Origin: Candidatus Latescibacterota bacterium
Lineage (GTDB): Bacteria > Latescibacterota > UBA2968 > UBA8231
Assembly: GCA_965200315.1 (NCBI GenBank)
Contig: OZ241362.1
Span: forward strand, 1,344,001 to 1,408,000
Direction: 5' to 3'
Length of the DNA: 64,000 bases
In this document: in pieces, positions 13,134-39,171 of the stretch
Layout: every line of letters begins with the position of its first letter
How positions within the stretch are numbered: the stretch's first letter is position 1
Program-made: the position numbers and the translations under genes
The notes under the pieces: generated by a model
Seen by the model: only the letters and a program-made list of their open reading frames with translations
Told to the model about the DNA's origin: nothing
The model's database searches: none

Positions 13134-13167
13134 AAAAAGAGGAGCTAGACGGAAGGTCCAGCTCCTC
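13134..13167 (-). terminator. intrinsic terminator ending the 13.2-28.8 kb operon
   Basis: Minus strand GAGGAGCTGGAC-CTTCC-GTCTAGCTCCTC followed by TTTTT; the one non-Watson-Crick pair is G-U in the minus-strand RNA. Confidence 0.75.
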
Positions 13168-13212
13168 GCAATGAGATGTCCTGCCATACGTCGTGATATC
13201 CAGTCCGGCGAC

Positions 13213-13980
13213 TCAACCAGCGCCGCCTGCGCTGGCCTTTTCCCTCGTTCCTTGGTCCACCGCAAAGCGGAACTCGACGTCGATGGTCTCTTCGGGATTG
13301 CCGCTGGCGTCAAACGACAGCACGAATTCGTGGAAGGTTAGCAGCAGTGCGTCGTTTTCTGGCAGCAGCGGGTCGAAGACCAACATGCCTTTTTGGCTGC
13401 TATCGCGGAAGATCGGTCGATGGCGATGAAAGACCGTCTTGTAGATAATGCCCATGCGCTCCAAGTTGATTTCGCGCTCGTTGCCCGAAGTGCCCAGCTC
13501 CATTTTGTAGTACTTGGTGAAGCTGTTGCCCCCCAACACGACGGCCCCCTCGCGCCCGGGATCGTAGTAGCGATAGGTCTCGCCGCCCGATTCCATGGTC
13601 GCCTTGGCCGGATCGAATTCGATCTTCGCATAGGTCTTGTTTATGACCTCGATTTCAAAGACGGTGAAACGCGGGGGGGTATAGCCCTTTTCGGGATCAA
13701 TGCCGTCTCGGGTGTAGGGGTTGACGTGGCGACCATCGTACAGGGGGGGGAAGCGCTCGTTGAGCTCGGGGTCGCTCAGGTGCCGCACCCGGATTAAAAG
13801 CCCCTCTTTGCTAAAGACCATCGAGCTGTCGTCCGGGTCGATGGTGTAGTCGCCGCGGCCCTCGGGCAGGACGGGCATCACGTGCAGGTCATACGCAAGT
13901 TGGGGCGGCACCAGCCCCCCGCAGCTCCAGCCTATCCCAAGCGCCACTAAGCCGACGAGCACCATGTACCTCGTTCTCAT
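13213..13980 (-). CDS. uncharacterised lipoprotein (paralog of 25021-25800)
   Basis: Signal peptide ending WSC; shares IDP.DSS, YTPP..TVFE..VIN.T and F.L.FD motifs with 25021-25800. Confidence 0.8.
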   Translation of the reverse strand: MRTRYMVLVGLVALGIGWSCGGLVPPQLAYDLHVMPVLPEGRGDYTIDPDDSSMVFSKEGLLIRVRHLSDPELNERFPPLYDGRHVNPYTRDGIDPEKGYTPPRFTVFEIEVINKTYAKIEFDPAKATMESGGETYRYYDPGREGAVVLGGNSFTKYYKMELGTSGNEREINLERMGIIYKTVFHRHRPIFRDSSQKGMLVFDPLLPENDALLLTFHEFVLSFDASGNPEETIDVEFRFAVDQGTREKASAGGAG

Positions 13981-14011
13981 AAAATTGTAACTCCCTTTTT
14001 GCTAGCTGCCG

Positions 14012-14431
14012 TCAATTGGTTGGTTCCTCGGTTTCAATATCGATTTTTTCTACACCCGCCATAGTGGCCGTTTCCATCGCGTCGATGATATGGCCGTGCG
14101 CAGCACCCGCGTCCGCGGTGATAATCAGCGTCGATGAGCCGGTGCGGACCTTCTCGCGCTCTAGCCAACTGGCTAGCTGCCCCATGGCCACGAGCTGCCC
14201 GTTGATCTCAAACTGACCCTCGCTTGAGATGCGCAGATTCAGCTTCTTTTCGGACTTGAGCTGGTCGTAGTGAACCGAGTCGGGCAACTCGATCTTGAGC
14301 TGAGTGGCCTTGACAAAGACCGTAGTGGTCATAAAGAAGATCAACAGCAGGAACACCGCGTCTATCATCGGCGTCAGATTCAGTTCAAATTCGCCGGCTT
14401 TTTCGGCCAGCGACTGTCTCCGTTTAGCCAT
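14012..14431 (-). CDS. exbD: ExbD/TolR family protein (canonical Asp)
   Basis: NLTPMIDAVFLLLIFFM TM motif; periplasmic IITADAGAAHG..IDAM; ATG at 14431. Confidence 0.9.
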   Translation of the reverse strand: MAKRRQSLAEKAGEFELNLTPMIDAVFLLLIFFMTTTVFVKATQLKIELPDSVHYDQLKSEKKLNLRISSEGQFEINGQLVAMGQLASWLEREKVRTGSSTLIITADAGAAHGHIIDAMETATMAGVEKIDIETEEPTN

Positions 14432-14435
14432 GCCG

Positions 14436-14855
14436 CTATCCTTCTCCGCTCTTGGCGAAAGCGATGGCCTCAATGCCCTCGCCGCGGGCGATGTCCATCA
14501 CCTGCACCACATAGGAGTGCGGTATTGAGCGTGCAGACTCCAAGATCACGTTCTTGGTGTTGTCGGCCTCAATAACTTGACGGATCTTTTCCGCCAATCT
14601 CGCCTTATCCGTAACCTCGCCGTTGACTTGGATCGTCTGATCCGGGTCAATCACGATGTTCATGTCCTTGGTCGCCCTCGACTCGCCTTCGCCACCTGGC
14701 AGATCTACGCTCAGGCCCTTGGGGTTGACGAAGGTGGTCGCCACCATAAAGAAAACCAACAGCAAAAACATGCAGTTGATCAGCGGAGTCAGATCTGGGT
14801 TTTCCGAGGTCTTAAAGGCTCTTTTGCCGAATCCGCTCTTTCGTCTCTGCCGCAT
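14436..14855 (-). CDS. exbD: ExbD/TolR family protein (Asn at the essential Asp position)
   Basis: DLTPLINCMFLLLVFFMV TM motif; VDLP; VVQVMDIAR. Confidence 0.9.
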   Translation of the reverse strand: MRQRRKSGFGKRAFKTSENPDLTPLINCMFLLLVFFMVATTFVNPKGLSVDLPGGEGESRATKDMNIVIDPDQTIQVNGEVTDKARLAEKIRQVIEADNTKNVILESARSIPHSYVVQVMDIARGEGIEAIAFAKSGEG

Positions 14856-14873
14856 CGCCGCGTCTCTTTCTGC

Positions 14874-15548
14874 CTAGCTGGCCCTCTGCTGACTGGCTTG
14901 GAAGCGCACCAGCAGAGTATTGGCGAAGGCGTGGCAGTACAGCTCCACGCTCTTGAAGACCTTTTCCGCGCGGCCGGAGAGGTAGCGGTGGAAGATGATG
15001 GTCGGAATGGCGACGATGAGGCCACTCGCCGTCGTGATCAGGGCCTCGGAGATGCCGCTGGCGACAGCCGCCGGATCGCCGGCCCCGGCGCGGGCAATCG
15101 CGTCAAAGGCGTTAATCATACCCATGATCGTGCCCAACAACCCCATCAGCGGGGAGAGGACACCAATGGTTCCGAGCGCGTTGAGGAGGCGGCCTAAGTA
15201 CATTTCGCCGGCCTCTTCAGTAGCCAAGATCAACTCTTGGCGCATGTCCTCCAGATCCGTGCGATTTTCCAGCACCAAGGTATCGTAGCGCTTCACCAAG
15301 GCGGCGAAAATGAAGTTGAGCACACCGCTGCCTTGTCGGAACAGCTCAATGGCCCCGCCTTCGCCTTGACTTCTGAGCACTTCCTCTGCTTCGTTGAGCT
15401 GCTGTTCGGCTTCCTCTTCGCCCGGGACCGCCAGCAGACGCCACAGCCGTTCTATGATGATGGCTAGGGCAATAAGCAAGCAGAGCAACATGGGCCACAT
15501 CATCGGGCCGCCTTTGAAAAACTGGTCAACTAAAAAATTCTGCTCCAT
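14874..15548 (-). CDS. exbB: MotA/TolQ/ExbB proton channel protein
   Basis: GGPMMWP, SPLMGLLGTIMGMINAF and GISEALITTASGLIVAIP motifs. Confidence 0.92.
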   Translation of the reverse strand: MEQNFLVDQFFKGGPMMWPMLLCLLIALAIIIERLWRLLAVPGEEEAEQQLNEAEEVLRSQGEGGAIELFRQGSGVLNFIFAALVKRYDTLVLENRTDLEDMRQELILATEEAGEMYLGRLLNALGTIGVLSPLMGLLGTIMGMINAFDAIARAGAGDPAAVASGISEALITTASGLIVAIPTIIFHRYLSGRAEKVFKSVELYCHAFANTLLVRFQASQQRAS

Positions 15549-15596
15549 TACAACCTCCCGGTATTGTATCCTGCTTTGCGTTGCGTTAAAAGCTCG

Positions 15597-18500
15597 CTAG
15601 AGCCGGTTTTCTACGATCCACTCTCGGTGTAGCTTGGCAAAATTGACCACGTCGGCGTTTTCCACCTTGTCCCCGCCCTTTTCTTCCACTACTTGATAGT
15701 TTTCTACGGCCTGCGACCACTGGCGCGTGATTTCATAGACCAGCCCCAAGTTGCAGTACGCGGCCAATTCGGTATAAGTGCCGGGGTACTCGCGGATAAT
15801 CTCCTGTAGGGCTGGCACGGCCCGGTCGTAGTCTTTGGCCTCAAAGAGCTTCATGGCCTCGTTGTAGCTAAAGCTGGCCTGAATTTCGCTCAGCTCTTCC
15901 ACTAGAGCTGTGGATCTCGACGCCTCCTCGGAGTCGGGATATAGCTTGATTACTTTCTTATAGGCTGCCATGGCCTCGTCATAAGACTGGATATTGTAGT
16001 AGTAGTCGCCGATGGTAAACTGCGCTTTGGGGGCGAATTCGCTCTTAGGATAATTGGCAACGAGGCCTTGCATCGCGCCTACGGCTTGCTCCATCTCCTC
16101 TTGTTCGACAAAGGACCAAGCCAACGCGTATTGCGCCGACCCGCCGTATCGGCCTTGGGGATATTGGGCCAAGAGTGCTTGATATGCCGTCGCAGCCTCG
16201 GCAAAGGCCTGCTCGTTGTAGTGGTTTTCGCCAATGAGGAAAAGCGCTTCTTCCTCGTATTGGGACTGGAGATAGCGCTCGACTAGTTCGCTAAAAGCGG
16301 CCGCAGCCTCCTTGAACTGAGTCAGCGCCTGGAGGCTGTGCGCCAGATAGTACTGACCGTGAATGTGGTTGGCATTGCGCGGATATTTTTTGACAAAGGA
16401 CTTGAAGCTCTCGGCGGCTGCGGCGTAGTCGCCGTAGCTGATTTCGGCAAAGCCCTTGGAAAAGGCCAAGTTGCCGCTCTCGCCCGAACTCGGATAGCGC
16501 TTGAGACCTTGGGCAAAGACGCGGGCGGCTTCCTCGTACTGCTTCTGCTGTAGCAGCGCGTTGCCGATGATGGAATAGGCGCGTTCCTTGCGGTAGTAAC
16601 CCGCTTGATTGTCGTCTTCAAACTGCATGTCGAGGAGCTGGCGGGCGAATTTCTCGGCTTGGACGAAATCCTGCTGATCGTAGTACAGCTCGGTCAGGAG
16701 CATGCTAAAGGTCGCCTGCTCCTGAGGATCGTCCGACGCAGCGATGAGCTCTTGGTAGTAGCGGGCCGCCTCTTCTTGCCGCCCCAAGCGGATCATGCCC
16801 GCCCCCAGCGTACGGAAGGCACTGTCCTTTATCTGGGGAGCGGGATCGCTTTCGAGCAGGGCCTTCATATCATCCAGCGACGCCTCATAGCTCACGCGGG
16901 CTTGGGCCGTGTCGCCGACCGCGTCTTGCTGTTTGGCGACCTCGTAGTACGCGCCGCCGCGGGCCAGCAGCGAATTTTGCAGGATGTGCGTGGGCGGATT
17001 CAGCGCAATGGCCTGCCCCCAAAAGTCAATCGCACCGGCGAAATTGTCCTCGGCGAAATGCACCCGGGCCAAGGTGTAGTGCATCTGGCCTTTTAGGGTA
17101 TCGTCGCCGGCCCTATCCAAGGCACCCGCTAGGGCATGGCGCGCCTTTTCGTACTCTTGTTTGCCCATGTACAGCTCGGCCAACTCGACCTGCACGGTAG
17201 GCCACTTGTCCCACCCCTCTTCCACCGTCTCATAGGCGGCGATGGCGCTATCTTGATCCTCGAGGCGCTTGTAGGTAAGACCCAACTCCATCCGCGTCGT
17301 ATTGCGCAGTTCCGAATCCGGGAAACGGCCGAGGAAGGACGCATATATCTCCTCGGCCCGTTTGAGTTCGGATGCAGCATAGGCGATGCGGGCCAACTGC
17401 AAAAGGCCGTTGGGAGCCGCCGGATGGTCCGCATACTCATCGACCAACCGCTGGTACAACGGCTGCGCTGCTTCGTCTTTCTCTATGAGTTGGTTGGCAA
17501 AGCCGGCATTAAAAAGCACGTCCGGTATCAGGGCATTGTCTTCGCGCTGGTTCAAAAGCTGGTCGTAGCTTTCGAGCGCCTTGGCGATTTCCGCGTCTGC
17601 TCTAGCCGGGTCTTCGCCGCGAATCTGCCGCCCGTATTCTTGGTGGCACTGGGCGATGCGAAAGAGAACCTTGTAGCGGTCAAAGCCGATGCGCTGGGCC
17701 ACATCGCCGTAGGCCTTGAGATATATCTCGTATTCTTGGGCCGACTTGAGGTACTCGTCTTGGTCGAAAAGCATCAAGGCAACCGTTAGCTGCGTGCGGG
17801 CCTGAAAGAGCTTGTCCTCGACCTTTTCGATGGCGTCCTTGTACGCGGCGATGGCCGCTGTCGTGCCCTGTTCCTTCTGCACCAACTCGGCGATGCGGAT
17901 ATAGCTATTTTGTACCAAGACCGGCTCAGCCGCATATTCGGCCGGGAGCACAGCATAAGAGGTGAGAGCCTTTTCGACCTCGCCGTTGCGCGCGTAGATA
18001 TCGCCCTTTTTCAGGTGGGCCTTGGCAACGAGCTCGCGTGCGGTCTCCTTGACCAACCCCTTAAGCTTGAGGGTAGTCATCTCGATGATTTCTTCCTCGG
18101 TCATCTGCGCGAAGTCGTAGCGGGCGATGAGGCGATCGAGGTATTCCAGCGCATCTTCGTACTGCCCGAGTTGGTCGTAGCTCTCGGCGATCTGGAAGAG
18201 CGAGCGATCAGCGTTAGAGCCTCTAGGGGCTAAGACCAATACCTGCTTGAAGCTGGCAATGGCCTCCTCGTAGCGCTCCAATTCAAAATAGGACCACGCT
18301 CGGTCGTAGTGAACGGATGCCTCGTAGAGGCTGTGGGGAAAGCTGTGCAGCAGCGCGTCCCCTTCCTCAATGACCTGCTCGTACTCCTTGAGCTGGTAAC
18401 TCGTCTGGATCATCTGGTACTGGGCCATCACTCGGGTGCGATCATCGACGCGCTCGTCTGCGGCTAGCGTGCGGAAGTGGTCGCGGCTCTTGTTGAGATC

Positions 18501-18869
18501 TTGCAGCGCCTCCGCGTAGCGAGCGTCGGCTTCGGCCTCCTTTTGCTCCGAGCGCAAAAACTGCGAGCGCTGCAACTTTTCGAGCCCCAGCTTGTTGTAG
18601 GTATTGCCTAGCTGGTAGGTAGCACCCACGCGCACCGGCAGAATGAACTCGTCAACCGCTATGGTTACATCCTCCACGTTGATCATGGCGTTACTTTCAG
18701 TGGAGAGAATGACCTCATAGCGCTCAATGGCTCTATCGTAGTCCCCCAGCGCATAGAGCTTTTGGCCTTCCTCAAAGCGGTCTTGCAATTCCACCGGCGA
18801 GAAAAAGCGCGTACTCAGGCTGGCAGCCGCGCCGACCGCTGCGATTAGCAGCAGATTTACCAGAATCAT
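15597..18869 (-). CDS. large periplasmic TPR protein (1090 aa; CpoB/BamD-like repeats)
   Basis: N-terminal signal; TPR helices throughout, many with YP.S....A turns. Confidence 0.9.
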   Translation of the reverse strand: MILVNLLLIAAVGAAASLSTRFFSPVELQDRFEEGQKLYALGDYDRAIERYEVILSTESNAMINVEDVTIAVDEFILPVRVGATYQLGNTYNKLGLEKLQRSQFLRSEQKEAEADARYAEALQDLNKSRDHFRTLAADERVDDRTRVMAQYQMIQTSYQLKEYEQVIEEGDALLHSFPHSLYEASVHYDRAWSYFELERYEEAIASFKQVLVLAPRGSNADRSLFQIAESYDQLGQYEDALEYLDRLIARYDFAQMTEEEIIEMTTLKLKGLVKETARELVAKAHLKKGDIYARNGEVEKALTSYAVLPAEYAAEPVLVQNSYIRIAELVQKEQGTTAAIAAYKDAIEKVEDKLFQARTQLTVALMLFDQDEYLKSAQEYEIYLKAYGDVAQRIGFDRYKVLFRIAQCHQEYGRQIRGEDPARADAEIAKALESYDQLLNQREDNALIPDVLFNAGFANQLIEKDEAAQPLYQRLVDEYADHPAAPNGLLQLARIAYAASELKRAEEIYASFLGRFPDSELRNTTRMELGLTYKRLEDQDSAIAAYETVEEGWDKWPTVQVELAELYMGKQEYEKARHALAGALDRAGDDTLKGQMHYTLARVHFAEDNFAGAIDFWGQAIALNPPTHILQNSLLARGGAYYEVAKQQDAVGDTAQARVSYEASLDDMKALLESDPAPQIKDSAFRTLGAGMIRLGRQEEAARYYQELIAASDDPQEQATFSMLLTELYYDQQDFVQAEKFARQLLDMQFEDDNQAGYYRKERAYSIIGNALLQQKQYEEAARVFAQGLKRYPSSGESGNLAFSKGFAEISYGDYAAAAESFKSFVKKYPRNANHIHGQYYLAHSLQALTQFKEAAAAFSELVERYLQSQYEEEALFLIGENHYNEQAFAEAATAYQALLAQYPQGRYGGSAQYALAWSFVEQEEMEQAVGAMQGLVANYPKSEFAPKAQFTIGDYYYNIQSYDEAMAAYKKVIKLYPDSEEASRSTALVEELSEIQASFSYNEAMKLFEAKDYDRAVPALQEIIREYPGTYTELAAYCNLGLVYEITRQWSQAVENYQVVEEKGGDKVENADVVNFAKLHREWIVENRL

Positions 18870-18886
18870 GGTGTCAATCTCCTAGC

Positions 18887-21808: not shown

Positions 21809-21859
21809 GGCAGCTATCCTCATTCAGTGTAGAGATTCTGTCTTCAGTCGCATTCCAAC

Positions 21860-22720
21860 TCAGTGCTGGCGATAACCAACGCTGAACCGATGCACACCTC
21901 CGTAGCCGGAGAGTTGCATCGGGTATGAGTAAGCATAATCGAAATGCCATTGCTTATAGTTGTGCCCAAGCCCCACGTTGATCTCTCTCTCGTCAAAACC
22001 TGAACCCACCGCGGCTCCCCCCATGCGAAACCGAGCGCCGTTGAGGCTCACCGTCCGCGTCTCGTACCCCACCTTGAACTCCGTTCGCCCATCGCGGCGC
22101 TCAATGTCGAGCAGGACTTCCTGCCCCGCCAAATTGAGCAAGGCCGCTGCAACTACGGCCGGCTTTTCTTTGCCTGCGGCTTGGCCACCCGCGGCGATGT
22201 TCGCGCCGTTTAAGTCTTTGGCGACCAACGCCAAGCGCAGGTACGCCCTCGGGTGTATGAAACCCACTTCCCAAGTGGCACCTACATCGAGGCGCCAAGC
22301 CCGATGCGACAGGTCGCCGGCTTTCCAAGCGCTGGTGCGCAAGCCACCACCCAAGGCGAAGCGCTCGTGCAACGGCTTCCCATAGCCTAGGGCAACCACT
22401 TCTTCGCGCCAGCCGTCAGCCCCTAAAAACGAGACGCCGAGTTGGAAGCCGCCGCCCCGCAAAGGCCCGGTTACTGACAAGCCGTTTAGGGCTGGGCTTT
22501 GGTCTAACCCGGGATAGAGCAGCGCGTGCGTCGTACCAGCCTGCCACTTTTGCTGCTGGGCGTTACCGGCCGGATTGTACCAAACGGCCTCAGCCGTCCG
22601 AATGCTGGCGGCGAAAGCCCCACCCAATGCCGTGCTCTGGGCCCCGTGTGCCGCAAATTCAAAAGCAGCGCCAACCGGGGAGACGAGGGCCAGCAATAGG
22701 GCACTAGTACGCCACCACAA
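21860..22720 (-). CDS. PorV/PorQ-like (FadL-type) outer-membrane beta-barrel
   Basis: GAQSTALGGAF...AVWYNPAG N-terminal hatch motif; C-terminal FDYAY...GGVHRFSVGY. Confidence 0.75.
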   Translation of the reverse strand: MWWRTSALLLALVSPVGAAFEFAAHGAQSTALGGAFAASIRTAEAVWYNPAGNAQQQKWQAGTTHALLYPGLDQSPALNGLSVTGPLRGGGFQLGVSFLGADGWREEVVALGYGKPLHERFALGGGLRTSAWKAGDLSHRAWRLDVGATWEVGFIHPRAYLRLALVAKDLNGANIAAGGQAAGKEKPAVVAAALLNLAGQEVLLDIERRDGRTEFKVGYETRTVSLNGARFRMGGAAVGSGFDEREINVGLGHNYKQWHFDYAYSYPMQLSGYGGVHRFSVGYRQH

Positions 22721-24362
22721 AAGTGCCTCGGCGCGCCTTATCGCTTCCTTCTATCCCAACCTCGTACAGATAGAGCCCCGGCTCGACAACCTGACCGCTA
22801 CCATCGCGGCCGTCCCATTCAAACTGATAGGTCCGGGCGCTTCCAGTCTGCGCCAACTGGCGAACTGGCCGACCGGTCAAGTCGTAAATTTTTAGCACGA
22901 CCTCCCGGCCCGCTTCAATGTTGCCGACTACAAAAGCAAAGCGCACATACTCATCAGCAAACGGAGAGAACGGACGCGGCTCCACCTGCACTGCGCCCAA
23001 AAGCTGCAACGGCGTTCCCGCAGCCAGCACCGTCCAAGTGGCACCCGGCATTTCCTGCCCCTGCTGCCAGTTCACGTAGCCGTCTCTGTCGCCTTGGGCT
23101 TTGTTGCCAGCCTCAAAGCGCATGGTGGTCTTGTCGCGCACAAAGAGCGCTTGCCCCTCCATTTCGACAGTCGCCATCGCGTTGATTCGCTCGCTAGGTG
23201 TAAGCTCTATCAGTATCCCCTCCCGGTCCGATGTCGATCCCCAAGTGTAATCCTCTGTAGGCACGAGTTCTCTACCATCGACGCGCACGGCTTCTACGCC
23301 GAGCAAGGGACCTTGTACTCGCAAGAGATCGATCCCGTAATCATCGACGCCAGCCGCGATCTCCACTCGGTAGCTCAGCATCGTTTCCTCGCCCTTGCGC
23401 AGCGAATCGGATACGACCACCGCCGCCAAGAGCTGTTGGGCTACCAAGACGGAATCGTAGTCAATGGCAATGCGCTTGAGCGCCGGGCTGACAAAGGGGG
23501 CCGAGTTCGTCAGGTGGGCCCGGTATGCCAACCTCACGACCGGCTCGTCTCCGCTGTAGAAAAATTCCCCGTCCGTGTGCGCCGCAACGCTTCCCCAAGG
23601 CTTTTCTGCACTCTCTGCGGTAGTTCCGCGCACCTGCAACTCAATGCCCGTGCGCTCCGGGTGCTCTGTTTGCCAGCGGATCTGCCCTACGTTGACCGGG
23701 GTAGGCGGGGCGAAGCTATCCTCTATGAAGCCTTCGCTAACGTAACCCACGCCGAACACCTCAATTTCGCCGATGGCGACCCAGTTGCTGCGGTCTTGGC
23801 GGATTATTGTCAACCGTACGAAGCGACCCGCGCGCGGGATTGCCTCTCCGCGCTCGTTGGTCGCGGCCCAAGTAGAATCTGCACTCGTATCTACATTGAG
23901 GACGAAATTGTCCGGCTGTTCCGCCAAAAGGTGCCAGACTTGCGGTGCCACCTGAGCGGCTGTTTCGAGCCTGTATCCACGCACGAAATACTCGGGCTGG
24001 TTCAGCGCCGTCTCGCCAGCTAGCAATCGCACGCGCTTGATCGCCCGGTCCAAGCCGAGATCGATGGTAAACTGCTTGTCGAACACGTGATTAGTGCCCG
24101 AGATCCACTCGCTCCTCACGAGGTCAATCGCGCCGTCGGTTAGCGGCACAGGCTTGTCAAAATCGTCTATCACTGATCGTCCTAAAGCTACATTTATATT
24201 CTCGTCCAAATGCGCCAAGATGACGAGGCTATCTGGATGCACCTGTACGCCTTGGGTCGTTCCCAAGGCAAATGTATCGACCGCGTCCACTACCCAAGTC
24301 CTTAATTCGGCACGGCACGGACTGAATTCGAGCAAGAGCAAGAGGACAACTAGCCTCAGCAC
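22704..24362 (-). CDS. secreted protein with discoidin/F5-8-like domain and C-terminal FlgD-Ig (T9SS CTD-like) domain
   Basis: FTIDLG...RFVRLTI...IGEIEVFG; C-terminal PRPFSP...KIYDLTGRPVRQL...WDGRDGSGQVVEPGLYLY. Confidence 0.8.
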   Translation of the reverse strand: MLRLVVLLLLLEFSPCRAELRTWVVDAVDTFALGTTQGVQVHPDSLVILAHLDENINVALGRSVIDDFDKPVPLTDGAIDLVRSEWISGTNHVFDKQFTIDLGLDRAIKRVRLLAGETALNQPEYFVRGYRLETAAQVAPQVWHLLAEQPDNFVLNVDTSADSTWAATNERGEAIPRAGRFVRLTIIRQDRSNWVAIGEIEVFGVGYVSEGFIEDSFAPPTPVNVGQIRWQTEHPERTGIELQVRGTTAESAEKPWGSVAAHTDGEFFYSGDEPVVRLAYRAHLTNSAPFVSPALKRIAIDYDSVLVAQQLLAAVVVSDSLRKGEETMLSYRVEIAAGVDDYGIDLLRVQGPLLGVEAVRVDGRELVPTEDYTWGSTSDREGILIELTPSERINAMATVEMEGQALFVRDKTTMRFEAGNKAQGDRDGYVNWQQGQEMPGATWTVLAAGTPLQLLGAVQVEPRPFSPFADEYVRFAFVVGNIEAGREVVLKIYDLTGRPVRQLAQTGSARTYQFEWDGRDGSGQVVEPGLYLYEVGIEGSDKARRGTFVVAY

Positions 24363-24363
24363 T

Positions 24364-25020
24364 TCAGAATAGCAGTTTCTGGGTCAGGCTGGTCACCACG
24401 GCGATGGCAAGGGCTTCCTCCAACTCCTTAGAGTTGAAAATCATGACAATGCCGGCATCAACCGGGCTTTTCGTGCTCACTTTGCCGGTTTTGAGATCCT
24501 TAACCAAGACCTCGACCTGCACTCTTTGCGTCTGCGGGGAGAATACTTTGCGTACCCGCTGACTGGTAATCAGCGCCGTGCCGCTAATTTCCAAGTCGGC
24601 CTCGTCCGAGTCCTCCGACACTAGCGTAAAAGGATTGTTCACTTGCCGTACGCTGTCTTCGTCTAGCACTTCGACCCGATCCGTCTGCGTGAGGATTCGC
24701 ACCTTGTCCTTGCGGAGTTCGCGCAACAAGGCCCCAGACAAGTCCTCGATGCGCGAAGGCCGAGTAATCTGCACCAAGCGATTTCCCTGACTAGCGAGGG
24801 CGTTAGTAATGTACTGAGTGTCTTGGCTACCGGCCGAATTGGCGGTCCTCGGATCGACCACGTTGGCCTTGCTCTCGACCGGGAATTCCTTGACGTATAT
24901 TTTGACCGGCATCGACGGCGGGTTGGGCAAACTGGTGTCCTTGAGTGTCTCGTATTTCAAAGTACAGGCCGTTAAGCCGAGAAGCAGCGTCATTCCCAAG
25001 TATTGCGCCATCTTTTTCAT
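24364..25020 (-). CDS. uncharacterised lipoprotein
   Basis: Lipobox LTAC; tightly packed in the operon. Confidence 0.8.
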   Translation of the reverse strand: MKKMAQYLGMTLLLGLTACTLKYETLKDTSLPNPPSMPVKIYVKEFPVESKANVVDPRTANSAGSQDTQYITNALASQGNRLVQITRPSRIEDLSGALLRELRKDKVRILTQTDRVEVLDEDSVRQVNNPFTLVSEDSDEADLEISGTALITSQRVRKVFSPQTQRVQVEVLVKDLKTGKVSTKSPVDAGIVMIFNSKELEEALAIAVVTSLTQKLLF

Positions 25021-25800
25021 CTACTTGTTCTCCACCCAACGCACTCCGTGATCGACCTTGAAGTCGAATTTCAGATCGGTAAATTCCACTGGATTGCCGT
25101 ATCCTACTTGAAAGCGATCAAAGGCCAGAATGAAGTCGTTTACTTCGAGAGTGAATGACTTGGTTTCCGCAGGCAGCGGTGGAAAAGTCAGCTTGCCGAC
25201 ATACCTAGAGCCTTTGCGCACGGGCTTTTCTCGGTGGTACGCGCTTTTAGTCCAGATTGGTCCACGATCCAAGCTGGCGTGATAGCGCACATTGCCTTCT
25301 TGCCCCCCCCACTTCAAATAGGAATAGTCGTAGTACTCGTCCTTGGCGTACCAATTCCCCGCCCCTTGGCCACAGAGCAGTCGGCTGCCGTCGTCCAAGC
25401 GAAGAACGGTCTGCGTGGGGTCTAGCTCTACCCGCTCCCGAGTGCGGTTGATCACCGTCATTTCAAAAACGGTCCACAGAGGCGGCGTATAGTCCAAGCC
25501 GGGGATTTTGACTCCCGTGAGTGTATAGGGCGTGAAGCGGACGTCGTATTCAGCGTCGAGCATGGCATCGTCGTAGAACTTGACCTTGACTTGCACCCCT
25601 TGCTCGCTCCACACGACCGAGCTGTCGATTGGATCGATGTAATAGGTTTCTCCATCGGGCAGGACCGGCTCTAGCTCGATGAAGTACTCCTGCTGCGAAT
25701 GCGATTCGAGGGATCTGAGGGTAGCGCACCCTCCGGCGGCCAGCGCCAAGCATAGGAGGATGTGGATGTATTTTGTGATGGCTCTCATGTGCATTCGCAT
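25021..25800 (-). CDS. uncharacterised lipoprotein (paralog of 13213-13980)
   Basis: Lipobox AGGC; shared motifs with 13213-13980. Confidence 0.8.
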   Translation of the reverse strand: MRMHMRAITKYIHILLCLALAAGGCATLRSLESHSQQEYFIELEPVLPDGETYYIDPIDSSVVWSEQGVQVKVKFYDDAMLDAEYDVRFTPYTLTGVKIPGLDYTPPLWTVFEMTVINRTRERVELDPTQTVLRLDDGSRLLCGQGAGNWYAKDEYYDYSYLKWGGQEGNVRYHASLDRGPIWTKSAYHREKPVRKGSRYVGKLTFPPLPAETKSFTLEVNDFILAFDRFQVGYGNPVEFTDLKFDFKVDHGVRWVENK

Positions 25801-25801
25801 C

Positions 25802-28800
25802 CTAAAAGGGTGATATCAACTCTACGAAGAGGATGCCCTGCTTGGAGTCGGGCCGTCCTGCATGGCTATAGTCCCGCCGTGTGCGCTGATAGCCGAAGAA
25901 TATCGAATTGTCGCGGATGCCAAAGTAGTCTGCGGTGATGCTCAGCATGGCCAGATAATCGGTCTGGCTATACGTCCCGGTCTGGCTGTACGCCCCGATT
26001 TGGCTGTACGTCCCGTCCTCCGAGGCGCGATCCCAGTGCTTAAACGGCAGCAAGGGTAGCCCTTGTATGCCTAGCTGAAAGCTAGTCTTGGGCGTGAGCT
26101 TGTACTCTCCCATTACTATGGGGATGAAGTCGCTATACGATTTCCTCGGCGCATCTTCGCTGTCAACCTGCTCAAAGATCGTCCGATGCTTCAACTTAGG
26201 CGTGACGCTGAAGGCACCCCAGCTACGGGTGTAGTCGATCTTGTTGACAATAGAAAAACGCGAGCGCACGTCTTCGGGCTGCAATAGTCCGCTGCCGTCC
26301 TCAAGCTCTATTTCGGCTTGGCTGTTACGCTGCCACAGGAAACCGTTTTCAATGTTGAAGCCGCTAAAACCTTTATAGGTGCTGTCTAAAAAGAGGAGTT
26401 GCACAAAACTGTCGCGCATCAACAACTCGTCCGGCGTCGCCGGTCGCCAAAAACCCGCGCGTTCGGGCGGACCGTCGGGCTCGTTAAACCAGTTGATGAC
26501 CTCGACATCGTCAATGGGCACTCGGTACACGTAGGTGTGATCCGGGATGTCGTCTTTGACCTGCTTGGCGTCGTAGTTAATTTTCAGTTGGCCGACGCCG
26601 CGCTTCTCCACCGAGTATGCGTAGCGGAAGTACAGCGCCTCGGATTTACCGGGGCCGGCGATCTGACTGTTGTCGTAGCGGCCTAGAGTGATGAACTTGC
26701 CCAAGCGCCCCAAGCGGTCGTAGCGAATGAAGATGTGCTGGCCCTTTTGGTCGCGCGGGTAGGGGTAGTCCGGCTTATCGTCGTTCTCGCGAAAGTCGGG
26801 TACATTGTTGTTGTTAAAGTCGATGCCATAAGCAAATTCGGGTGGCTCCGAATCGTAGGTCAGAAAAGCCTCTTCCCAGTCCACAATGAAGTTCTCATTG
26901 CGATCCATATCGGGGATGTTATCGACGTTCTCGTCGAGGCCCGGATACACTTGAGCACCGGGATTACCTGGATAAAGCGAACGCGGCTCGGCAGTCGCCG
27001 TATCGTCGCTGTGGCTGTCGGGTAAGGTGTCGTGATCGTCGTTGTCTTCGTGGATGGGGAACTCCTCGGTGACCGTAGTGATTCTCTCGCCAGGCGCAGG
27101 CTGGCCGTCGTAGTGAAAGGCCATGCCGCCGCGATAGCTATCGTACCCGCCGCCGTAGTCGGGCTCCATGCGGTATATCTCCCCACCCAGTGACAGGCCG
27201 GCGGCTAGGTCCTTGACGCCCTTGACCCACCACGCAAAAGCGCGTTCACTGCTGCGTTGGCCTTCGTTATTGCCGATTGGGAACATGAAGTTTTGCAGAT
27301 TGTGCGCCACTTCGCCGCTGAGATCGAGCCCTACCAAATCGACCTGATAGTTGATCGAGGCCAAGCTCTGTCCGGTGGGAATGCCGTAGTCAAAAGAAAT
27401 TAGCTGCCGATTGGCACCCGTGCCGTCGCTGCCATCAGAGCGGACCACAGTATAATAGAGATCCTCGTCTTCGTCTGTGTACCACTTAAATGGACGCCGG
27501 ATGGCCCGCTCACCAGCACTGGCGATGGGAGCGGGCCAAGCCGACTCGGTGATAGCCGCATTGCCTCGGCGATCGATATTGAAGAAGTCGTGAGTTTGGC
27601 TAACGCCGACCCGGTAGTCGCCAGCCACATCGGCGACAAAACGCGCCGAACGCACCGTCACGTCCGGCGGGAGAACGAAGGTGTAAACCACCGGCACCTT
27701 GCCCTCGGCCTCGCGCCCACCGCCAGTGTGAACGGCACCGCCTTCGGGCGGCCCGGCTTCTAACAGCGGATCGTAGTCCGGGTCGTCGTCGAGGCTGGTC
27801 AGGCGCACCGGCTCTGTGTTGCGCTCGCCCTCAAGGACGATGTCCACACCATAGACAATGGCATTGGCCTGGGCATCCTCGGGCGAGTCGTCGGCCACAA
27901 AGACGCGGATGGTCTTGGGGCCGAGCATCTCATAGGGCAAATCGCCGCGCCAAGCACTGGAGCGCGACAGGGCCGGCGCAGCCATGATCTGGTTGATTAG
28001 CGTCCCGCCAATACTGGCGAAGCGACCTACTTCGTGCTGATAGTGGCCGCCAAAGAGCAGCACCGGTGAATTATCCCAAGCGTCATCGCCCTCTTGACCA
28101 AACGCCCATTTGGAAAACAACTGGGTACCAGAGTGATCGCCACCGCGCGAGTACAACAGAGTTGCCCGGTCGCGCTCCTTGTAGTTTATATCCATGCGCA
28201 GCACATTCAGCTTGCTGTTGACCAGCGTAAGTGGTGTGAAAATGGTGCGCACATCCGTACCACCGCCCGGTGATCCCACGTTGCCCAACGTGGCAATCCA
28301 GTGCAAATCCTTGTGAGTATAGTGGCCGACCCGGAACGACCGATACTTGTGGTCGATATAACTAGCCCCACTAAAGTCATTACCACTGCGCGACTCTTCT
28401 ATCGTCAGGAGTCGCCGATAGCCGCCGCCCATGTAGTTGCCTATCCGGTCCCAACCCACATTACGGGTCCTTAGCGTCCGGCCCGACGGGGTGGCCCAAG
28501 CAACCGTCTCTCGGTAGTACGAAATGTACTTTTCGGCGGCGTAGTTGAGATAGGGGACGCTAACGGCGGTGTTGAGGAAGGCCCTCCCTAATCCTCGATC
28601 ATAGCGGTCTTGGGGACCGCGCAGGAAAGGGGGGCGCTTTTTCCACGGGGGATCTTGCGGCGTACCAGGTGCGGGGTTGTAATAGGGCAGCGGACCGCCG
28701 GATTCGGGGTGGCGCTGCGCATCCGCCGGCGCGGATAGGCCAGCGCAAACCAGCGCGGACAAAACCACCCAGCGCTCGACGACACGGCATTTTAGAAAAC

Positions 28801-28807
28801 ACAGCAT
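25802..28807 (-). CDS. large exported / probable outer-membrane beta-rich protein B (paralog of A)
   Basis: Collinear with 18887-21808: PYLNY, SPVL.FGGH, DDSP.D, FDYGIPTGQ, PGLDEN.D.IPD, GIDFNNN.V.D.REND..PDYPYPRD; ends LFVELISPF. Confidence 0.8.
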   Translation of the reverse strand: MLCFLKCRVVERWVVLSALVCAGLSAPADAQRHPESGGPLPYYNPAPGTPQDPPWKKRPPFLRGPQDRYDRGLGRAFLNTAVSVPYLNYAAEKYISYYRETVAWATPSGRTLRTRNVGWDRIGNYMGGGYRRLLTIEESRSGNDFSGASYIDHKYRSFRVGHYTHKDLHWIATLGNVGSPGGGTDVRTIFTPLTLVNSKLNVLRMDINYKERDRATLLYSRGGDHSGTQLFSKWAFGQEGDDAWDNSPVLLFGGHYQHEVGRFASIGGTLINQIMAAPALSRSSAWRGDLPYEMLGPKTIRVFVADDSPEDAQANAIVYGVDIVLEGERNTEPVRLTSLDDDPDYDPLLEAGPPEGGAVHTGGGREAEGKVPVVYTFVLPPDVTVRSARFVADVAGDYRVGVSQTHDFFNIDRRGNAAITESAWPAPIASAGERAIRRPFKWYTDEDEDLYYTVVRSDGSDGTGANRQLISFDYGIPTGQSLASINYQVDLVGLDLSGEVAHNLQNFMFPIGNNEGQRSSERAFAWWVKGVKDLAAGLSLGGEIYRMEPDYGGGYDSYRGGMAFHYDGQPAPGERITTVTEEFPIHEDNDDHDTLPDSHSDDTATAEPRSLYPGNPGAQVYPGLDENVDNIPDMDRNENFIVDWEEAFLTYDSEPPEFAYGIDFNNNNVPDFRENDDKPDYPYPRDQKGQHIFIRYDRLGRLGKFITLGRYDNSQIAGPGKSEALYFRYAYSVEKRGVGQLKINYDAKQVKDDIPDHTYVYRVPIDDVEVINWFNEPDGPPERAGFWRPATPDELLMRDSFVQLLFLDSTYKGFSGFNIENGFLWQRNSQAEIELEDGSGLLQPEDVRSRFSIVNKIDYTRSWGAFSVTPKLKHRTIFEQVDSEDAPRKSYSDFIPIVMGEYKLTPKTSFQLGIQGLPLLPFKHWDRASEDGTYSQIGAYSQTGTYSQTDYLAMLSITADYFGIRDNSIFFGYQRTRRDYSHAGRPDSKQGILFVELISPF

Positions 28808-28885
28808 GAAAACCCCTCGCGGGTCATATTAAAGCGGGCGAAAAACATATATTTGCCAAAGCTCGCGCTCGCGGGTCGGGTCAAG

Positions 28886-28928
28886 AAAAAAAAACGGGAA
28901 GCAGGCGTCAAGCCCACTTCCCGTTTTT
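28886..28928 (-). terminator. intrinsic terminator after the CBM9-like gene
   Basis: CGGGAAG..GGC/GCC..CTTCCCG stem with A/T tracts on both sides; 9 T on the minus strand. Confidence 0.8.
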
Positions 28929-28953
28929 GTATAACCTATCCAAAAGTCATTGA

Positions 28954-29901
28954 CTATTGGACGAAGGTCTCCTTTACGCGGCCCCAAGAATCTTCTTCGA
29001 CCGCGGTCCCTGACGGACCAGCCGGCGTATCCACAAAGACATAGTTGGCGAACTCGGACATGTTGCCGCCCGCCCAGGCCACGCATTGAATCTGACCACC
29101 GTAGGCATCTTCGCCATCGGGATCAATCGGCAACCAAGCAAAGCCCATCTCAGAGCCAGTCGTAGGGGCTTCAAAGAGGTTACCGTTGCGCAGGAAGGTC
29201 TCCCACGGCAACTTGCCTTCAATCACGTAGTCCGCATCCCCCTCGTCGCCAAACTCGTCGCCGGCGTCGCGGAAGCCGTACTCAAACCCCTCAAGCGCAT
29301 CGGGATCGTGAACATCCACGCGCGCCATATCCACGGTGGTGATTAAGCAGACAGACCACTCGTGAGAACCAAAAGGCAGGGCCATGAAGTTGACGACATT
29401 TAGGTTGACGAACTCTTGGGTTGGGTCGCCTCCTGGGTGATCGTCATTGTTCAGGTCGAGGTAAAGAGACACGGAGTCGCGTTCCCACCAAGCCCGAGCC
29501 TCACCACCCCCCTCGGTGTCGCGGATGTTATCGCTGATCTCGGCGATGTAGTACAGGGCTTCGTCATCCCAAGCCTGCAAGATCGTCGATTCAAAATCGG
29601 CGTTAGTGCGCCCCTCGCCCGCGACTTCGGTCTCGCCGTTTTCGCTGAGCTGGTTAGCGCTTACTTCGCTGGACCCCTGCTCTTGATTCCGCCAGCCAAA
29701 CTCTTGGCCATCGAGCTGGATTTGGTCTGGCGAGCAGGGAAATTCCAGCGCACCAGCCCACTCGTCAGCAACGGTTGCGCGGTCGCCGTCAAGCGTGGGG
29801 GCTTGAGTAAATTTGGGCAAGTCAAAGTAGCGCACGGGTGGCTGGGCATTGGCCAGCGTGGTAAAGCAAAAGGCCGCGGCCAAAAGGGTCAACTTCTTCA
29901 T
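28954..29901 (-). CDS. secreted CBM9/DOMON-like sugar-binding protein with C-terminal AVE...WGRVK tail
   Basis: Signal peptide ending ANAQ; APTLDG...DEW, AWDDEALYY.AEISD, DSVSLYLD, YVIEGKLPW; ends GTAVEEDSWGRVKETFVQ; RBS AAGGAG. Confidence 0.8.
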   Translation of the reverse strand: MKKLTLLAAAFCFTTLANAQPPVRYFDLPKFTQAPTLDGDRATVADEWAGALEFPCSPDQIQLDGQEFGWRNQEQGSSEVSANQLSENGETEVAGEGRTNADFESTILQAWDDEALYYIAEISDNIRDTEGGGEARAWWERDSVSLYLDLNNDDHPGGDPTQEFVNLNVVNFMALPFGSHEWSVCLITTVDMARVDVHDPDALEGFEYGFRDAGDEFGDEGDADYVIEGKLPWETFLRNGNLFEAPTTGSEMGFAWLPIDPDGEDAYGGQIQCVAWAGGNMSEFANYVFVDTPAGPSGTAVEEDSWGRVKETFVQ

Positions 29902-29955
29902 TACTGCATCTCCTTAGCTGTGAGAAGTGGACGAAAGACTTTGAATGAAGGATTC

Positions 29956-29984
29956 ATAATAAATGCCCGCCAAAAGGTTGTCAA
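29956..29984 (-). promoter_or_regulatory. near-consensus sigma70 promoter for the CBM9-like gene
   Basis: Minus strand TTGACA (29984-29979), 17-nt spacer, TATTAT (29961-29956). Confidence 0.75.
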
Positions 29985-30074
29985 GAAAAAGTTGCCCTAC
30001 GAGATCATTCAAATTATATCATTAGCTCAATGTAAAAACAGGTCTTCCACCGCGAGCGCACATCCTTAAATTCC

Positions 30075-34961: not shown

Positions 34962-34964
34962 TTC

Positions 34965-36224: not shown

Positions 36225-36325
36225 CAGTGGGTTTCACTAGCGGGGGGAACACTTGGGCATGGGATCTGTCGCGCCGAGCGCGTCTAGCGCACCCTGTACA
36301 TCTCACAAATCCCATAAATCACAGC

Positions 36326-39170: not shown

Positions 39171-39171
39171 A

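Follow-up and report, generated by a model that had tools for sequence, protein, structure and literature searches.

An operon of giant outer-membrane barrels and an ExbB/ExbD motor as a candidate TonB-less uptake hub in a Latescibacterota bacterium

An 11-gene operon on the minus strand of the 64,000-nucleotide stretch analyzed here (the window) is best read as one hub of a putative lineage-specific uptake system with three such hubs, each bearing a motor. In the reading that we favor, while holding it tentatively, its parts would form a TonB-less, PMF-energized outer-membrane uptake system that relies on the canonical T9SS to bring its surface parts into place. No paper describing such a machine was found in the literature. 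The preliminary description had proposed either export or import; gene context favors import, with the direction drawn from the neighbors only, and an export role is kept as the main rival.

The operon consists of 11 tightly packed open reading frames at positions 13213-28807, as first read, with intergenic spacings of -17 to 48 nt. Domain assignments are based on Pfam and NCBIfam profile searches with family cut-offs, and the three lipoprotein assignments on a signal peptide and a Cys read off the sequence. The genes, their bounding hairpins and their neighbors are, in the direction of transcription:

28954-29901, minus strand: CBM9-like secreted protein, 315 aa (PF06452, E 1.8e-10), upstream neighbor
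28890-28928, minus strand: intrinsic terminator at the boundary between the CBM9-like gene and BigB, 17-pair stem then T run
25802-28807, minus strand: BigB, giant outer-membrane barrel, 1001 aa, paralog of BigA
25021-25800, minus strand: LipoX1, 259-aa lipoprotein, paralog of LipoX2
24364-25020, minus strand: LipoY, 218-aa lipoprotein, lipobox LTAC
22704-24362, minus strand: CTD surface protein, 552 aa, T9SS-style C-terminal domain and weak discoidin-like domain
21860-22720, minus strand: PorV/PorQ/PorP-like small barrel, 286 aa
18887-21823, minus strand: BigA, giant outer-membrane barrel, 978 aa
15597-18869, minus strand: TPR protein, 1090 aa, uncharged N-terminal hydrophobic helix
14874-15548, minus strand: ExbB/TolQ-family stator subunit (PF01618)
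14436-14855, minus strand: ExbD1 (PF02472), Asn variant at the conserved membrane Asp position
14012-14473, minus strand: ExbD2 (PF02472), likely start at the ATG at 14431
13213-13980, minus strand: LipoX2, 255-aa beta-sandwich lipoprotein
13139-13167, minus strand: intrinsic terminator 3' of LipoX2, 12-pair stem then T run
11481-13313, minus strand: SurA/PpiD-like PPIase (Rotamase_2, E 1e-25), downstream neighbor
9481-11460, minus strand: OPT-like permease, 659-aa polytopic membrane protein, downstream neighbor

The preliminary description of 11 packed minus-strand genes between two strong terminators holds at these coordinates. The hairpins at 28928-28890 and 13167-13139 are the two longest terminator-like hairpins in the region 12000-30000; the terminator scan overall shows no enrichment (18 sites, 18.1 expected). 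Conserved same-strand synteny reaches past both. The full 11-gene order is retained in 26 of 38 related loci, down to ~50% identity, so that the gene set is indeed kept together in relatives. Among the other 12 loci, 10 are truncated where the contig or locus ends, and two (L045 and L046) keep the barrels, the TPR protein and LipoX2 with ExbB/ExbD not in place, which counts against uptake. The CBM9-like gene lies upstream on the same strand in 29/38 loci and has a promoter-like site at 29984-29956 (11/12 positions matching). Downstream, the PPIase, whose true start probably lies further in than the listed TTG, is found in 32/38 loci and the permease in 27/38. The permease sequence has many hydrophobic spans and matches no Pfam or NCBIfam family; its OPT assignment is a lead from a language-model look-up, in which clusters named "Peptide transporter family" score 0.97 and contain PF03169 in 33% and 15% of their members, and this is weighed against the uptake reading.

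The preliminary description had suggested metatranscriptomes as a check. In four runs from one study, 95-98% of the sampled words were present, and RNA-library contigs, 12.9-14.0 kb long, span the junctions between genes and end at both terminators. Contig depth is 14-35 over the block and 310-640 over the CBM9-like gene; downstream of the block it is 1-9 in three runs and up to 22 in run X1. Operon contigs end at 28870-28894 in three runs and extend to 29034 in one; for the CBM9-like gene, contig ends with adapter sequence fall at 28912-29079. On the 3' side, the RNA contig ends lie at 13162, 13098 and 13093, and two of the three carry adapter sequence. The CBM9-like gene has its own transcript, and the 11-gene block shows a single expression level, as seen in assembled contigs from a single study that are compatible with more than one transcript and with possible DNA carry-over.

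BigA and BigB are outer-membrane barrels of an unnamed family. They are paralogs (35% identity over the full length, E 8e-166) that match no family in Pfam or NCBIfam searches, and BigB has a signal peptide, read off its sequence. The AF2 model of BigA (pLDDT 71.3, pTM 0.68) is an all-beta barrel of ~26-30 long strands. Among known folds, this very large barrel comes closest to Deinococcus SlpA, the best Foldseek match (E 1.6e-10, TM 0.15-0.17); MtrB, LptD and SprA, also giant outer-membrane barrels, are among the best matches too (E 2.8e-5 for SprA). Residues ~570-665 form an invariant Asp/Asn-rich segment, and the N-terminal residues ~36-112 are conserved, with pLDDT 25-39 in the model. The preliminary description had considered that the big proteins might model as ordinary TonB-dependent receptors or soluble enzymes. 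Both possibilities are rejected for the big proteins on the profile searches, the BigA model and its Foldseek matches. A plug domain or TonB-box-like element is likewise absent from the BigA model, a point against uptake.

The motor subunits are clear members of their families, with 100.7 bits for ExbB (PF01618), and 89.7 and 102.3 bits for ExbD1 and ExbD2 (PF02472); the TolQ and ExbB equivalog models all stay under their cut-offs on the operon ExbB. ExbD1 carries the motif TPLINCMF in 32/32 orthologs, in which Asn replaces the conserved membrane Asp. This Asp is retained in ExbD2, as P-x-I-D in 30/30 orthologs. Many ExbD2 orthologs have 139 aa; the ATG at 14431 is the likely start. The 1090-aa protein contains TPR families above Pfam cut-offs, and is also matched by the YbgF (215 bits over seven stretches), BamD (127.5 bits) and PorW/SprE (118.6 bits, cut-off 250) models. 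Its N-terminal layout is common to orthologs and three paralogs; no charged flank precedes the hydrophobic helix, which may be either a membrane anchor or a cleaved signal peptide, and no TonB-like His is found in it; this again counts against uptake. As first described, TonB, a TonB-dependent receptor, TolB and Pal are unrecognizable in the operon: TonB_C, Plug, TBDT barrel, TolB and OmpA/Pal profiles give no match in the 11 proteins at E <= 0.01.

The T9SS flavor noted in the preliminary description is confirmed by the CTD tail and the PorV/PorQ/PorP-like barrel, with adjustments to both. In the CTD protein, the FlgD_ig tail passes its Pfam cut-off (32 bits versus 27), whereas the discoidin domain also proposed is sub-threshold here (F5_F8_type_C, E 0.0058) and clear in its paralogs. 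CHU_C scores 19.1 bits, the PorU tail region matches with E 5.6e-7, and homology to other Big-adjacent CTD proteins spans residues ~74-552, beyond the tail. The small barrel does match the PorV family model NF033709, but with 43.8 bits it misses the cut-off of 90; a paralog in locus L067 reaches 78.6 bits, and the C-terminus has PorP/SprF matches. LipoX1 and LipoX2 are paralogs (35% identity, E 1e-38) of a family with 15 members in the genome, in which the lipobox Cys is invariant in 25/25 sequences. Pfam returns no family for LipoX1, and the AF2 model of LipoX2 (pLDDT 84.1, pTM 0.80) has YcdA (Z 9.1) and YjhA (Z 8.2) as nearest folds. LipoY is single-copy and matches no Pfam or NCBIfam family; CsgG/GNA1162-like lipoprotein clusters are nearest in a language-model look-up (score 0.94), a lead only.

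The machine is not self-contained, contrary to what had been proposed: the genome encodes 39 full-length Big barrel genes, four giant-TPR/LipoX loci including this operon, three of them with ExbB/ExbD, and SprA, PorU and PorV elsewhere. Independent paralogous loci repeat the giant TPR, LipoX, ExbB and ExbD genes, often with Big and a PorV-like barrel. Only four ExbB homologs occur genome-wide, three with giant TPR and LipoX proteins and one with TonB. The suggested search for tonB elsewhere found four TonB_C matches, one cluster (TPR-ExbB-ExbD-ExbD-TonB) being canonical, and there are 13 classical TBDT barrel matches. Each of the 39 Big genes is accompanied on its own strand by a CTD gene at a distance of up to 6 kb, on the upstream side in 31 cases. 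Of the 145 CTD ORFs in total, 69 are found no more than 6 kb from a Big gene (a zone of 8.3% of the genome), 26 within 500 bp (zone 2.6%) and 76 beyond 6 kb. A SurA-like PPIase and an OPT-like permease of the inner membrane are encoded close to most Big paralogs as well: 16 of 25 PPIase paralogs lie within 5 kb (zone 7.3%) and 22 of 40 permeases within 15 kb (zone 16.8%). One Big locus has ABC sugar-uptake genes too. Domains of binding type (F5/8 type C, CBM9-like) are found repeatedly among Big neighbors, the CTD neighbors show no catalytic domain, and 19 of 90 scanned neighbor proteins pass the Pfam cut-off for CHU_C (type-B CTD).

Across taxonomic families, the Big profile is found in 63/63 cases in f1, 0/30 in f2, 0/19 in f3 and 0/5 in f8, and the LipoX profile in 10/10, 0/21, 0/3 and 0/5, respectively; no genome has LipoX without Big. 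SprA, to be looked for outside the operon according to the preliminary description, occurs in 66/71 genomes of the phylum sample, including those of f2 (21/21), f3 (3/3) and f8 (5/5), which have neither Big nor LipoX. The presence of SprA where Big is absent indicates that the Big system is an add-on to the T9SS and not part of its core. On the other hand, classical TBDTs show no clean depletion in Big-bearing families, which counts against the uptake reading.

An unlikely but serious alternative is T9SS-like export or anchoring. Each Big protein would be a dedicated translocon or anchor for adjacent CTD proteins, as a giant PorP/SprF analog or a small SprA; ExbB/ExbD would replace the GldLM motor, with the PPIase, the PorV-like barrel and the SprE/PorW-like TPR protein as accessory parts. 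Big genes are linked most closely to CTD genes, several neighbors are type-B by CHU_C, and type-B CTD proteins bind cognate PorP-like barrels, as stated in PMC9143113. The PorW/SprE score of the TPR protein and the Foldseek match of BigA to SprA point the same way. A PPIase, a PorV-like barrel, an SprE-like TPR protein and a 5:2-type motor together also resemble the extended T9SS translocon parts list, to the detriment of uptake. In addition, no GldL, GldM or GldK match passes its cut-off in the genome, a single contig with 94.7% completeness, although SprA, PorU and PorV are found; the control genomes, however, are equally silent. Against export, a full SprA, PorU and PorV set is already present, the T9SS works without Big or LipoX in f2, f3 and f8, more than half of the CTD ORFs lie far from Big genes, the SprA model matches no Big gene, and linkage to an inner-membrane permease is unexpected for an exporter.

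That the genes form no joint machine, being co-transcribed for ease of regulation but with separate roles (a Ton-type motor for classical receptors, porin-like barrels, unrelated lipoproteins), appears improbable. L045 and L046 would fit it, and the classical TBDT and TonB_C matches do need motors, but these receptors are already served by the canonical cluster. Strict gene order, repetition of the giant TPR/LipoX/ExbB/ExbD combination at independent paralogous loci and co-distribution of Big and LipoX across families also argue for a common function. We give rather little credence to Tol-Pal-like envelope maintenance, in which the motor and a YbgF-like TPR protein would anchor or reshape the outer membrane by way of SlpA-like barrels and transport no substrate. 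At equivalog level, TolQ (87.4 bits) and TolR (57-59 bits) score best, next to the YbgF score; a separate TolQR set is absent, TolB is not above its cut-off in the genome, SlpA is an outer-membrane/S-layer complex protein per its PDB entries, and this operon is the most strictly conserved hub. Yet every Tol equivalog score is far under cut-off, SLH, OmpA_C and other cell-wall-binding domains were not found in the 11 proteins, f2, f3 and f8 do without Big and LipoX, and four giant-TPR/LipoX loci with 39 CTD- and permease-flanked barrels are unlike a housekeeping tether. The Agl-Glt system has a TolQ-like subunit, a pair of TolR-like ones, TPR proteins and outer-membrane barrels. The likeness first proposed holds in architecture alone and fails in sequence (GltC model 17.5 bits, cut-off 450); the operon has no equivalent of the TonB-like GltG/J, and nutrient uptake better fits the barrel paralogs and permease neighbors, making a gliding or surface-translocation motor of this type highly improbable.

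Under TonB-less uptake, the canonical T9SS would export the 552-aa discoidin-type protein, and the adjacent small barrel would hold it at the surface, like type-B CTD proteins on PorP-like barrels, where it may capture a peptide or glycan substrate. BigA and BigB would serve as conduits, and the LipoX and LipoY lipoproteins would assist or plug them. Proton flow through an ExbB pentamer and an ExbD1/ExbD2 heterodimer would generate force, which the giant TPR protein, replacing TonB/TolA, would relay to the barrels; the neighboring PPIase and OPT-like permease may provide the periplasmic and inner-membrane steps. The ~30 other barrel loci, which are motorless, could draw on the hubs in trans, in the way that TonB is common to many TonB-dependent receptors. 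If true, this would be a novel mechanism for drawing nutrients through the outer membrane.

The eleven minus-strand genes that the preliminary description had called tightly packed are all present at 13213-28807, with gaps of -17 to 48 nt. They encode, in order, BigB (1001 aa), lipoproteins LipoX1 and LipoY, a 552-aa protein with a T9SS-type C-terminal domain (CTD), a 286-aa PorV-like small barrel, BigA (978 aa), a 1090-aa TPR protein, ExbB, ExbD1, ExbD2 and lipoprotein LipoX2. Conservation was assessed on 38 loci with BigA orthologs (58-96% identity) from species-representative genomes, mostly labelled Latescibacterota. The full 11-gene order is found in 26 of these 38 loci, which dismisses the possibility, raised with the initial proposal, that the set is not conserved together. 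Ten of the remaining loci are interrupted by contig or locus ends, and two (L045 and L046) lack ExbB/ExbD, the TPR gene being followed directly by LipoX2. Since both retain the PorV-like gene, BigA, TPR, LipoX2 and a PPIase, the motor genes may sit elsewhere or have been lost. Same-strand neighbours are also conserved: a CBM9-like gene upstream (29/38 loci) and, downstream, a SurA-like PPIase (32/38) and a 659-aa polytopic membrane protein (27/38), which a language-model look-up placed with OPT-like permeases (0.97 to peptide-transporter clusters).

Three features frame the transcription of the operon and its neighbour.

28928-28890, minus strand, terminator-like hairpin 5' of the operon, 17 pairs
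13167-13139, minus strand, terminator-like hairpin 3' of the operon, 12 pairs
29984-29956, promoter-like site of the CBM9-like gene (28954-29901), 11 of 12 positions matched

Terminators had been proposed at both ends, and the two strongest hairpins in 12000-30000 indeed flank the operon, with RNA contigs ending there. However, the scan of this region is not enriched: it yields 18 sites, as against 18.1 in shuffled sequence, so that the hairpins alone are little proof. The RNA evidence consists of contigs assembled from four metatranscriptome runs of one study (95-98% of sampled words present), and such contigs cannot prove a single transcript. Contigs of three runs span 15064 or 15974 to 28870-29034, and the fourth run gives two pieces over 16246-28894. 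Three runs also give contigs from 13093-13162 to 15062-15876; one contig, from run X1, extends downstream, covering 11959 to 15062. Adapter-tagged contig ends lie at 13162, 13098 and 28912. Contig depth is 14-35 over the operon, 310-640 over the CBM9-like gene and, in three runs, 1-9 downstream. Steps this sharp point to RNA and away from DNA carry-over. The promoter-like site agrees with a 5' end of the CBM9-like gene near 29908-29938. One contig passes through the upstream hairpin to reach 29034; the operon may therefore be fed partly by terminator read-through from the CBM9-like gene.

BigA and BigB are paralogous (35% identity, E 8e-166), and neither the Big family nor LipoX nor LipoY matched any Pfam or NCBIfam family. 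The AlphaFold2 model of BigA (31 sequences; pLDDT 71.3, pTM 0.68) consists almost wholly of beta structure, in roughly 26-30 long strands. Left unmodelled were the conserved N-terminal residues 25-112 and an Asp/Asn-rich stretch at about 588-662 containing invariant Asp and Asn columns. With this model, Foldseek ranks Deinococcus SlpA first (8agd, 8ae1 and 7zgx; E 1.6e-10 to 3.5e-10), but with TM of only 0.15-0.17. MtrB, ZnuD, LptD and SprA follow, TM being low throughout (0.15-0.26), and VIA-align returns generic barrels only (Z 8-13). The likeness to SlpA extends to some BigA orthologs with a weak SlpA_C match (PF21620; E 3.9e-5 and 7.5e-6). However, the scores of these orthologs (P0020 and P0032; 22.7 and 25.1 bits) lie under the cut-off of 35, the window's BigA has no PF21620 match, and no SLH domain was found. 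TBDTs occur among the fold matches solely as generic barrels, and the Plug (PF07715) and TBDT barrel (PF00593) families are absent from BigA and BigB even at E <= 1. Hence the all-beta model, the SlpA-first matches of low TM and the sub-cut-off SlpA_C of orthologs mark BigA as a giant outer-membrane barrel belonging to a separate family. It fits neither of the outcomes that would have spoken against the preliminary description, a TonB-dependent receptor and a soluble enzyme.

Searching the PDB with profiles of the Big and LipoX alignments (A1 and A2) gave 0 matches at E <= 10. The Big family has no annotation and is small, with 768 clusters retrieved at E <= 0.001 from 1.84 billion representatives. 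In ten sampled clusters, source names were all “hypothetical protein” and MAG labels were Latescibacterota, Handelsmanbacteria, Ignavibacteria/Bacteroidota and one Firmicutes. In the literature searched, we found no description of the Big family or of a TPR-ExbBD-giant-barrel cluster, and nothing joining Latescibacterota to type IX secretion. PMC5317091 mentions just an ordinary TonB/ExbB/ExbD B12 system, and PMC12611786 concerns a Bacteroidota BAM complex with subunits unrelated to the operon.

The motor genes are assigned with confidence at family level. ExbB matches PF01618 (100.7 bits, cut-off 22.9) and ExbD1 and ExbD2 match PF02472 (89.7 and 102.3 bits, cut-off 25.4), whereas the ExbB equivalog models stay below cut-off (TIGR02797, 63.4 vs 206; TIGR02805, 50.7 vs 135). 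ExbD1 (14436-14855) carries Asn at the membrane Asp position, within TPLINCMF, in 32/32 orthologs. ExbD2 (14012-14473) retains the Asp in 30/30 orthologs, as do both ExbD of a paralogous locus at 3.95 Mb. We take this position to be that of the protonatable Asp of E. coli ExbD. The 1090-aa protein is TPR-rich by Pfam; its nearest NCBIfam models are YbgF (215 bits in 7 stretches), BamD and PorW/SprE (118.6 bits, cut-off 250). Among the 11 proteins there is no TonB_C, Plug, TBDT barrel, TolB or OmpA, in keeping with the earlier statement that no TonB, receptor, TolB or Pal is recognisable. LipoX1 and LipoX2 are paralogous (35% identity, E 1e-38). The LipoX2 model (pLDDT 84.1) is that of a lipoprotein with an Ig-like beta-sandwich fold; no relative was informative, its fold searches returning just Ig-like sandwiches, none with known function. 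LipoY resembles CsgG/GNA1162-type lipoproteins by language-model look-up only.

The 552-aa protein qualifies as CTD-bearing T9SS cargo by its FlgD_ig match (32 bits, cut-off 27; residues 486-535 of 552), and it also aligns with the PorU model's tail (E 5.6e-7). Its type-A (TIGR04183, 17.2 vs 23) and type-B (CHU_C, 19.1 vs 27) scores lie below cut-off. It is homologous to the CTD neighbours of Big genes well beyond the tail; the discoidin domain attributed to it is sub-threshold in the protein itself (E 0.0058) but clear in paralogs. Similarly, the 286-aa barrel is PorV-like in that PorV/PorQ is its nearest NCBIfam model (NF033709, 43.8 bits, E 2.4e-11), but this score is under the cut-off of 90. 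The pair recalls PorP/SprF anchoring, since the CTD gene is directly upstream of the small barrel gene and, elsewhere, CTD genes are directly upstream of Big genes. PMC9143113 reports PorP-PG1035 and SprF-SprB complexes, in which type-B CTD proteins bind PorP-like barrels. In contrast, the 552-aa protein falls short as a type-B CTD, the small barrel is under both the PorP and PorV cut-offs, and its final residues have no Cys, unlike the SprF C-tail with the twin cysteines named in PMC12635249.

The genome carrying the window (5.36 Mb, one contig, 94.7% complete) encodes 41 Big-family ORFs, of which 39 exceed 550 aa. Three further loci combine a giant TPR paralog with LipoX, two of them with ExbB/ExbD (1.50 and 3.95 Mb). 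With these paralogs, and with SprA, PorU and PorV encoded elsewhere, the complex can no longer be called “self-contained”. Most of the 39 large Big ORFs end in (V/I)(Y/F)AG(L/I)x; terminal Phe, considered as a classic BAM-substrate mark of the family, was dropped, only 3/39 ending in Phe, BigA and BigB among them. Using a CTD profile built from the genome itself, 145 ORFs were found to end in such a domain, and 69 of these have a Big gene no further than 6 kb away, in a zone making up 8.3% of the genome. For each of the 39 large Big ORFs, a CTD gene occurs on the same strand at up to 6 kb distance, and in 31 cases it is upstream. At 14 Big loci (90 proteins scanned), neighbours bear FlgD_ig or CHU_C tails, often with an F5/8 type C domain; no catalytic domain was recognised in them, and they adjoin genes for TPR, FG-GAP/ASPIC and PPIase proteins. 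In the window, FG-GAP/ASPIC-UnbV proteins alternate with TPR proteins at 33282-40380, and this pairing also borders several other Big loci.

SurA-like PPIases and OPT-like permeases share this neighbourhood. The genome holds 25 of the former and about 40 OPT-like/DUF6785-DUF6784 polytopic membrane proteins, including those at 3415-5319 and 9481-11460 of the window. Sixteen of the 25 PPIases are encoded at most 5 kb from a Big gene (zone 7.3% of the genome), and 22 of the 40 OPT-like/DUF6785 permeases at most 15 kb from one (zone 16.8%). DUF4159 proteins (398-459 aa) occur at all four giant-TPR loci: within 30075-32296 (plus strand) in the window, where the gene is divergent, upstream of the operon and behind a conserved 342-aa ORF, and at the paralogous loci L063 (16246-17481), L065 (18677-19966) and L067 (3451-4830). 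Only four ExbB homologs were found, the fourth within a canonical TPR-ExbB-ExbD-ExbD-TonB cluster. The check for tonB elsewhere in the genome gave four TonB_C matches (1.01, 1.15, 1.70 and 3.60 Mb), and PF00593 has 13 matches, all of both kinds outside the operon. The best genome-wide TolB match (TIGR02800) reaches 117.9 bits against a cut-off of 343. With only these four ExbB/TolQ homologs and TolB below cut-off, no separate canonical Tol-Pal system is recognised. The idea that Big proteins replace classical TBDTs was set aside, as Plug-domain counts overlap between Big-bearing and Big-free families with no clean pattern.

The search for sprA outside the operon identified SprA (TIGR04189) as one 2134-aa ORF at 3.73 Mb, and no Big gene matched this model. 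A true PorV (237 bits) adjoins PorU (615 bits) at 1.60 Mb. TIGR03513, TIGR03517 and PF12081 have no match in this genome, although control genomes are also silent for GldL and GldM, so that divergence may account for it; the best GldK match reaches 68 bits vs a cut-off of 350. In a sample of the phylum, 94 of 151 genomes carry a match to the Big profile: 63/63 of family f1 and none of families f2 (0/30), f3 (0/19) and f8 (0/5). LipoX is present in 39 of 71 genomes, in the same families as Big; it never occurs without Big (0 genomes), and 2 genomes have Big alone. As kin are non-independent, all these counts are descriptive of the sample and are no statistical test. SprA was found in 66 of 71 genomes, including all sampled members of f2, f3 and f8, which have neither Big nor LipoX. 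Judged from this distribution, the T9SS thus needs neither of them, and the Big system looks like a user of the T9SS.

What the operon does has to be weighed against known envelope machines. The main rival to import is a T9SS-like export or anchoring role, which we consider unlikely. The operon and its surroundings offer the same parts as the SprA extended translocon, in which SprA, PorV, PPI and SprE work with a GldLM motor: there is a giant barrel with a small one of the PorV family, a PPIase encoded alongside, an SprE/PorW-like TPR protein, CTD-tailed proteins and a motor of the 5:2-type PMF family; in addition, PDB 8gl8 is among the BigA Foldseek matches. On the other hand, Big genes are unmatched by the SprA model, the PorV, PorW and CTD type-A scores are under cut-off, and the motor is ExbB/ExbD and not GldLM. 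The canonical SprA/PorU/PorV set lies elsewhere in the genome, and SprA is present in families of the phylum without Big and LipoX. Tol-like envelope maintenance seems quite improbable: TolQ (TIGR02796, 87.4 bits) and TolR (TIGR02801, 57.2 and 59.3) rank highest at equivalog level and the TPR protein hits the YbgF-type model repeatedly, but the equivalog scores are under their cut-offs (221 and 127.3), no TolB or Pal family occurs in the 11 proteins, and the operon system exists in several copies, tied to an expanded family of barrels. The Agl-Glt likeness seen by the preliminary description extends to architecture alone, GltC (NF033756), the one Glt/Agl model run, scoring 17.5 bits vs a cut-off of 450; a role in gliding is highly improbable. 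That the eleven products form no joint machine at all is improbable: the two loci without motor genes in place speak for it, the gene order shared by most loci against it.

We tentatively favour PMF-energised import, for which we infer both the direction of transport and all contacts between the parts. The system resembles Ton/SusCD in its ExbB/ExbD-family stator with two ExbD genes, as in the genome's own TonB cluster, in its few motors for many barrels, and in its many paralogous barrels, each with a surface binding protein and near inner-membrane permeases, in the manner of polysaccharide-utilisation loci. It differs in having no TonB_C, Plug or TBDT barrel family in the operon, with the 1090-aa TPR protein in TonB's place, in a Big barrel that is larger and nearest to SlpA, in a surface partner that is T9SS-tailed and not a SusD lipoprotein, and in the ExbD1 Asn at the membrane Asp position. 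In the import reading, the discoidin-type 552-aa protein would be delivered by the T9SS and held by the small PorV/PorP-like barrel, in parallel with the type-B CTD/PorP-like binding of PMC9143113. The substrate would cross through BigA and BigB, to which LipoX and LipoY would be accessory. ExbB and the ExbD1/ExbD2 pair would form the stator, the giant TPR protein would substitute for TonB or TolA, and the PPIase and the OPT-like permease would pass the substrate onward.

It is possible, if doubtful, that this amounts to a third architecture for energised outer-membrane transport beside Ton and Tol, with an Asp/Asn ExbD heterodimer in the ExbB stator, TPR coupling in place of TonB, barrels of a new family with about 26-30 strands, and T9SS-surfaced substrate-catchers. 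If so, the 39 cassettes with a barrel, some 40 OPT-like permeases and 3 hubs (loci with giant TPR, LipoX and ExbB/ExbD) in 5.4 Mb would be the lineage's main route of peptide or glycan uptake, doing the work of SusCD with other components. The conserved Asp-to-Asn change in ExbD1 is a natural experiment on the number of proton-binding sites that a 5:2 stator needs. If the uptake reading holds, Latescibacterota and their relatives would bring large nutrients through the outer membrane by means of parts not previously seen in combination: an unnamed family of giant barrels, T9SS-delivered binding proteins and an ExbB/ExbD motor without TonB. The short list of PMF-driven trans-envelope machines would grow, and the Big family, a noticeable share of these genomes, would gain a testable function; there would also be implications for the nutrition of uncultured bacteria associated with sponges and sediments.
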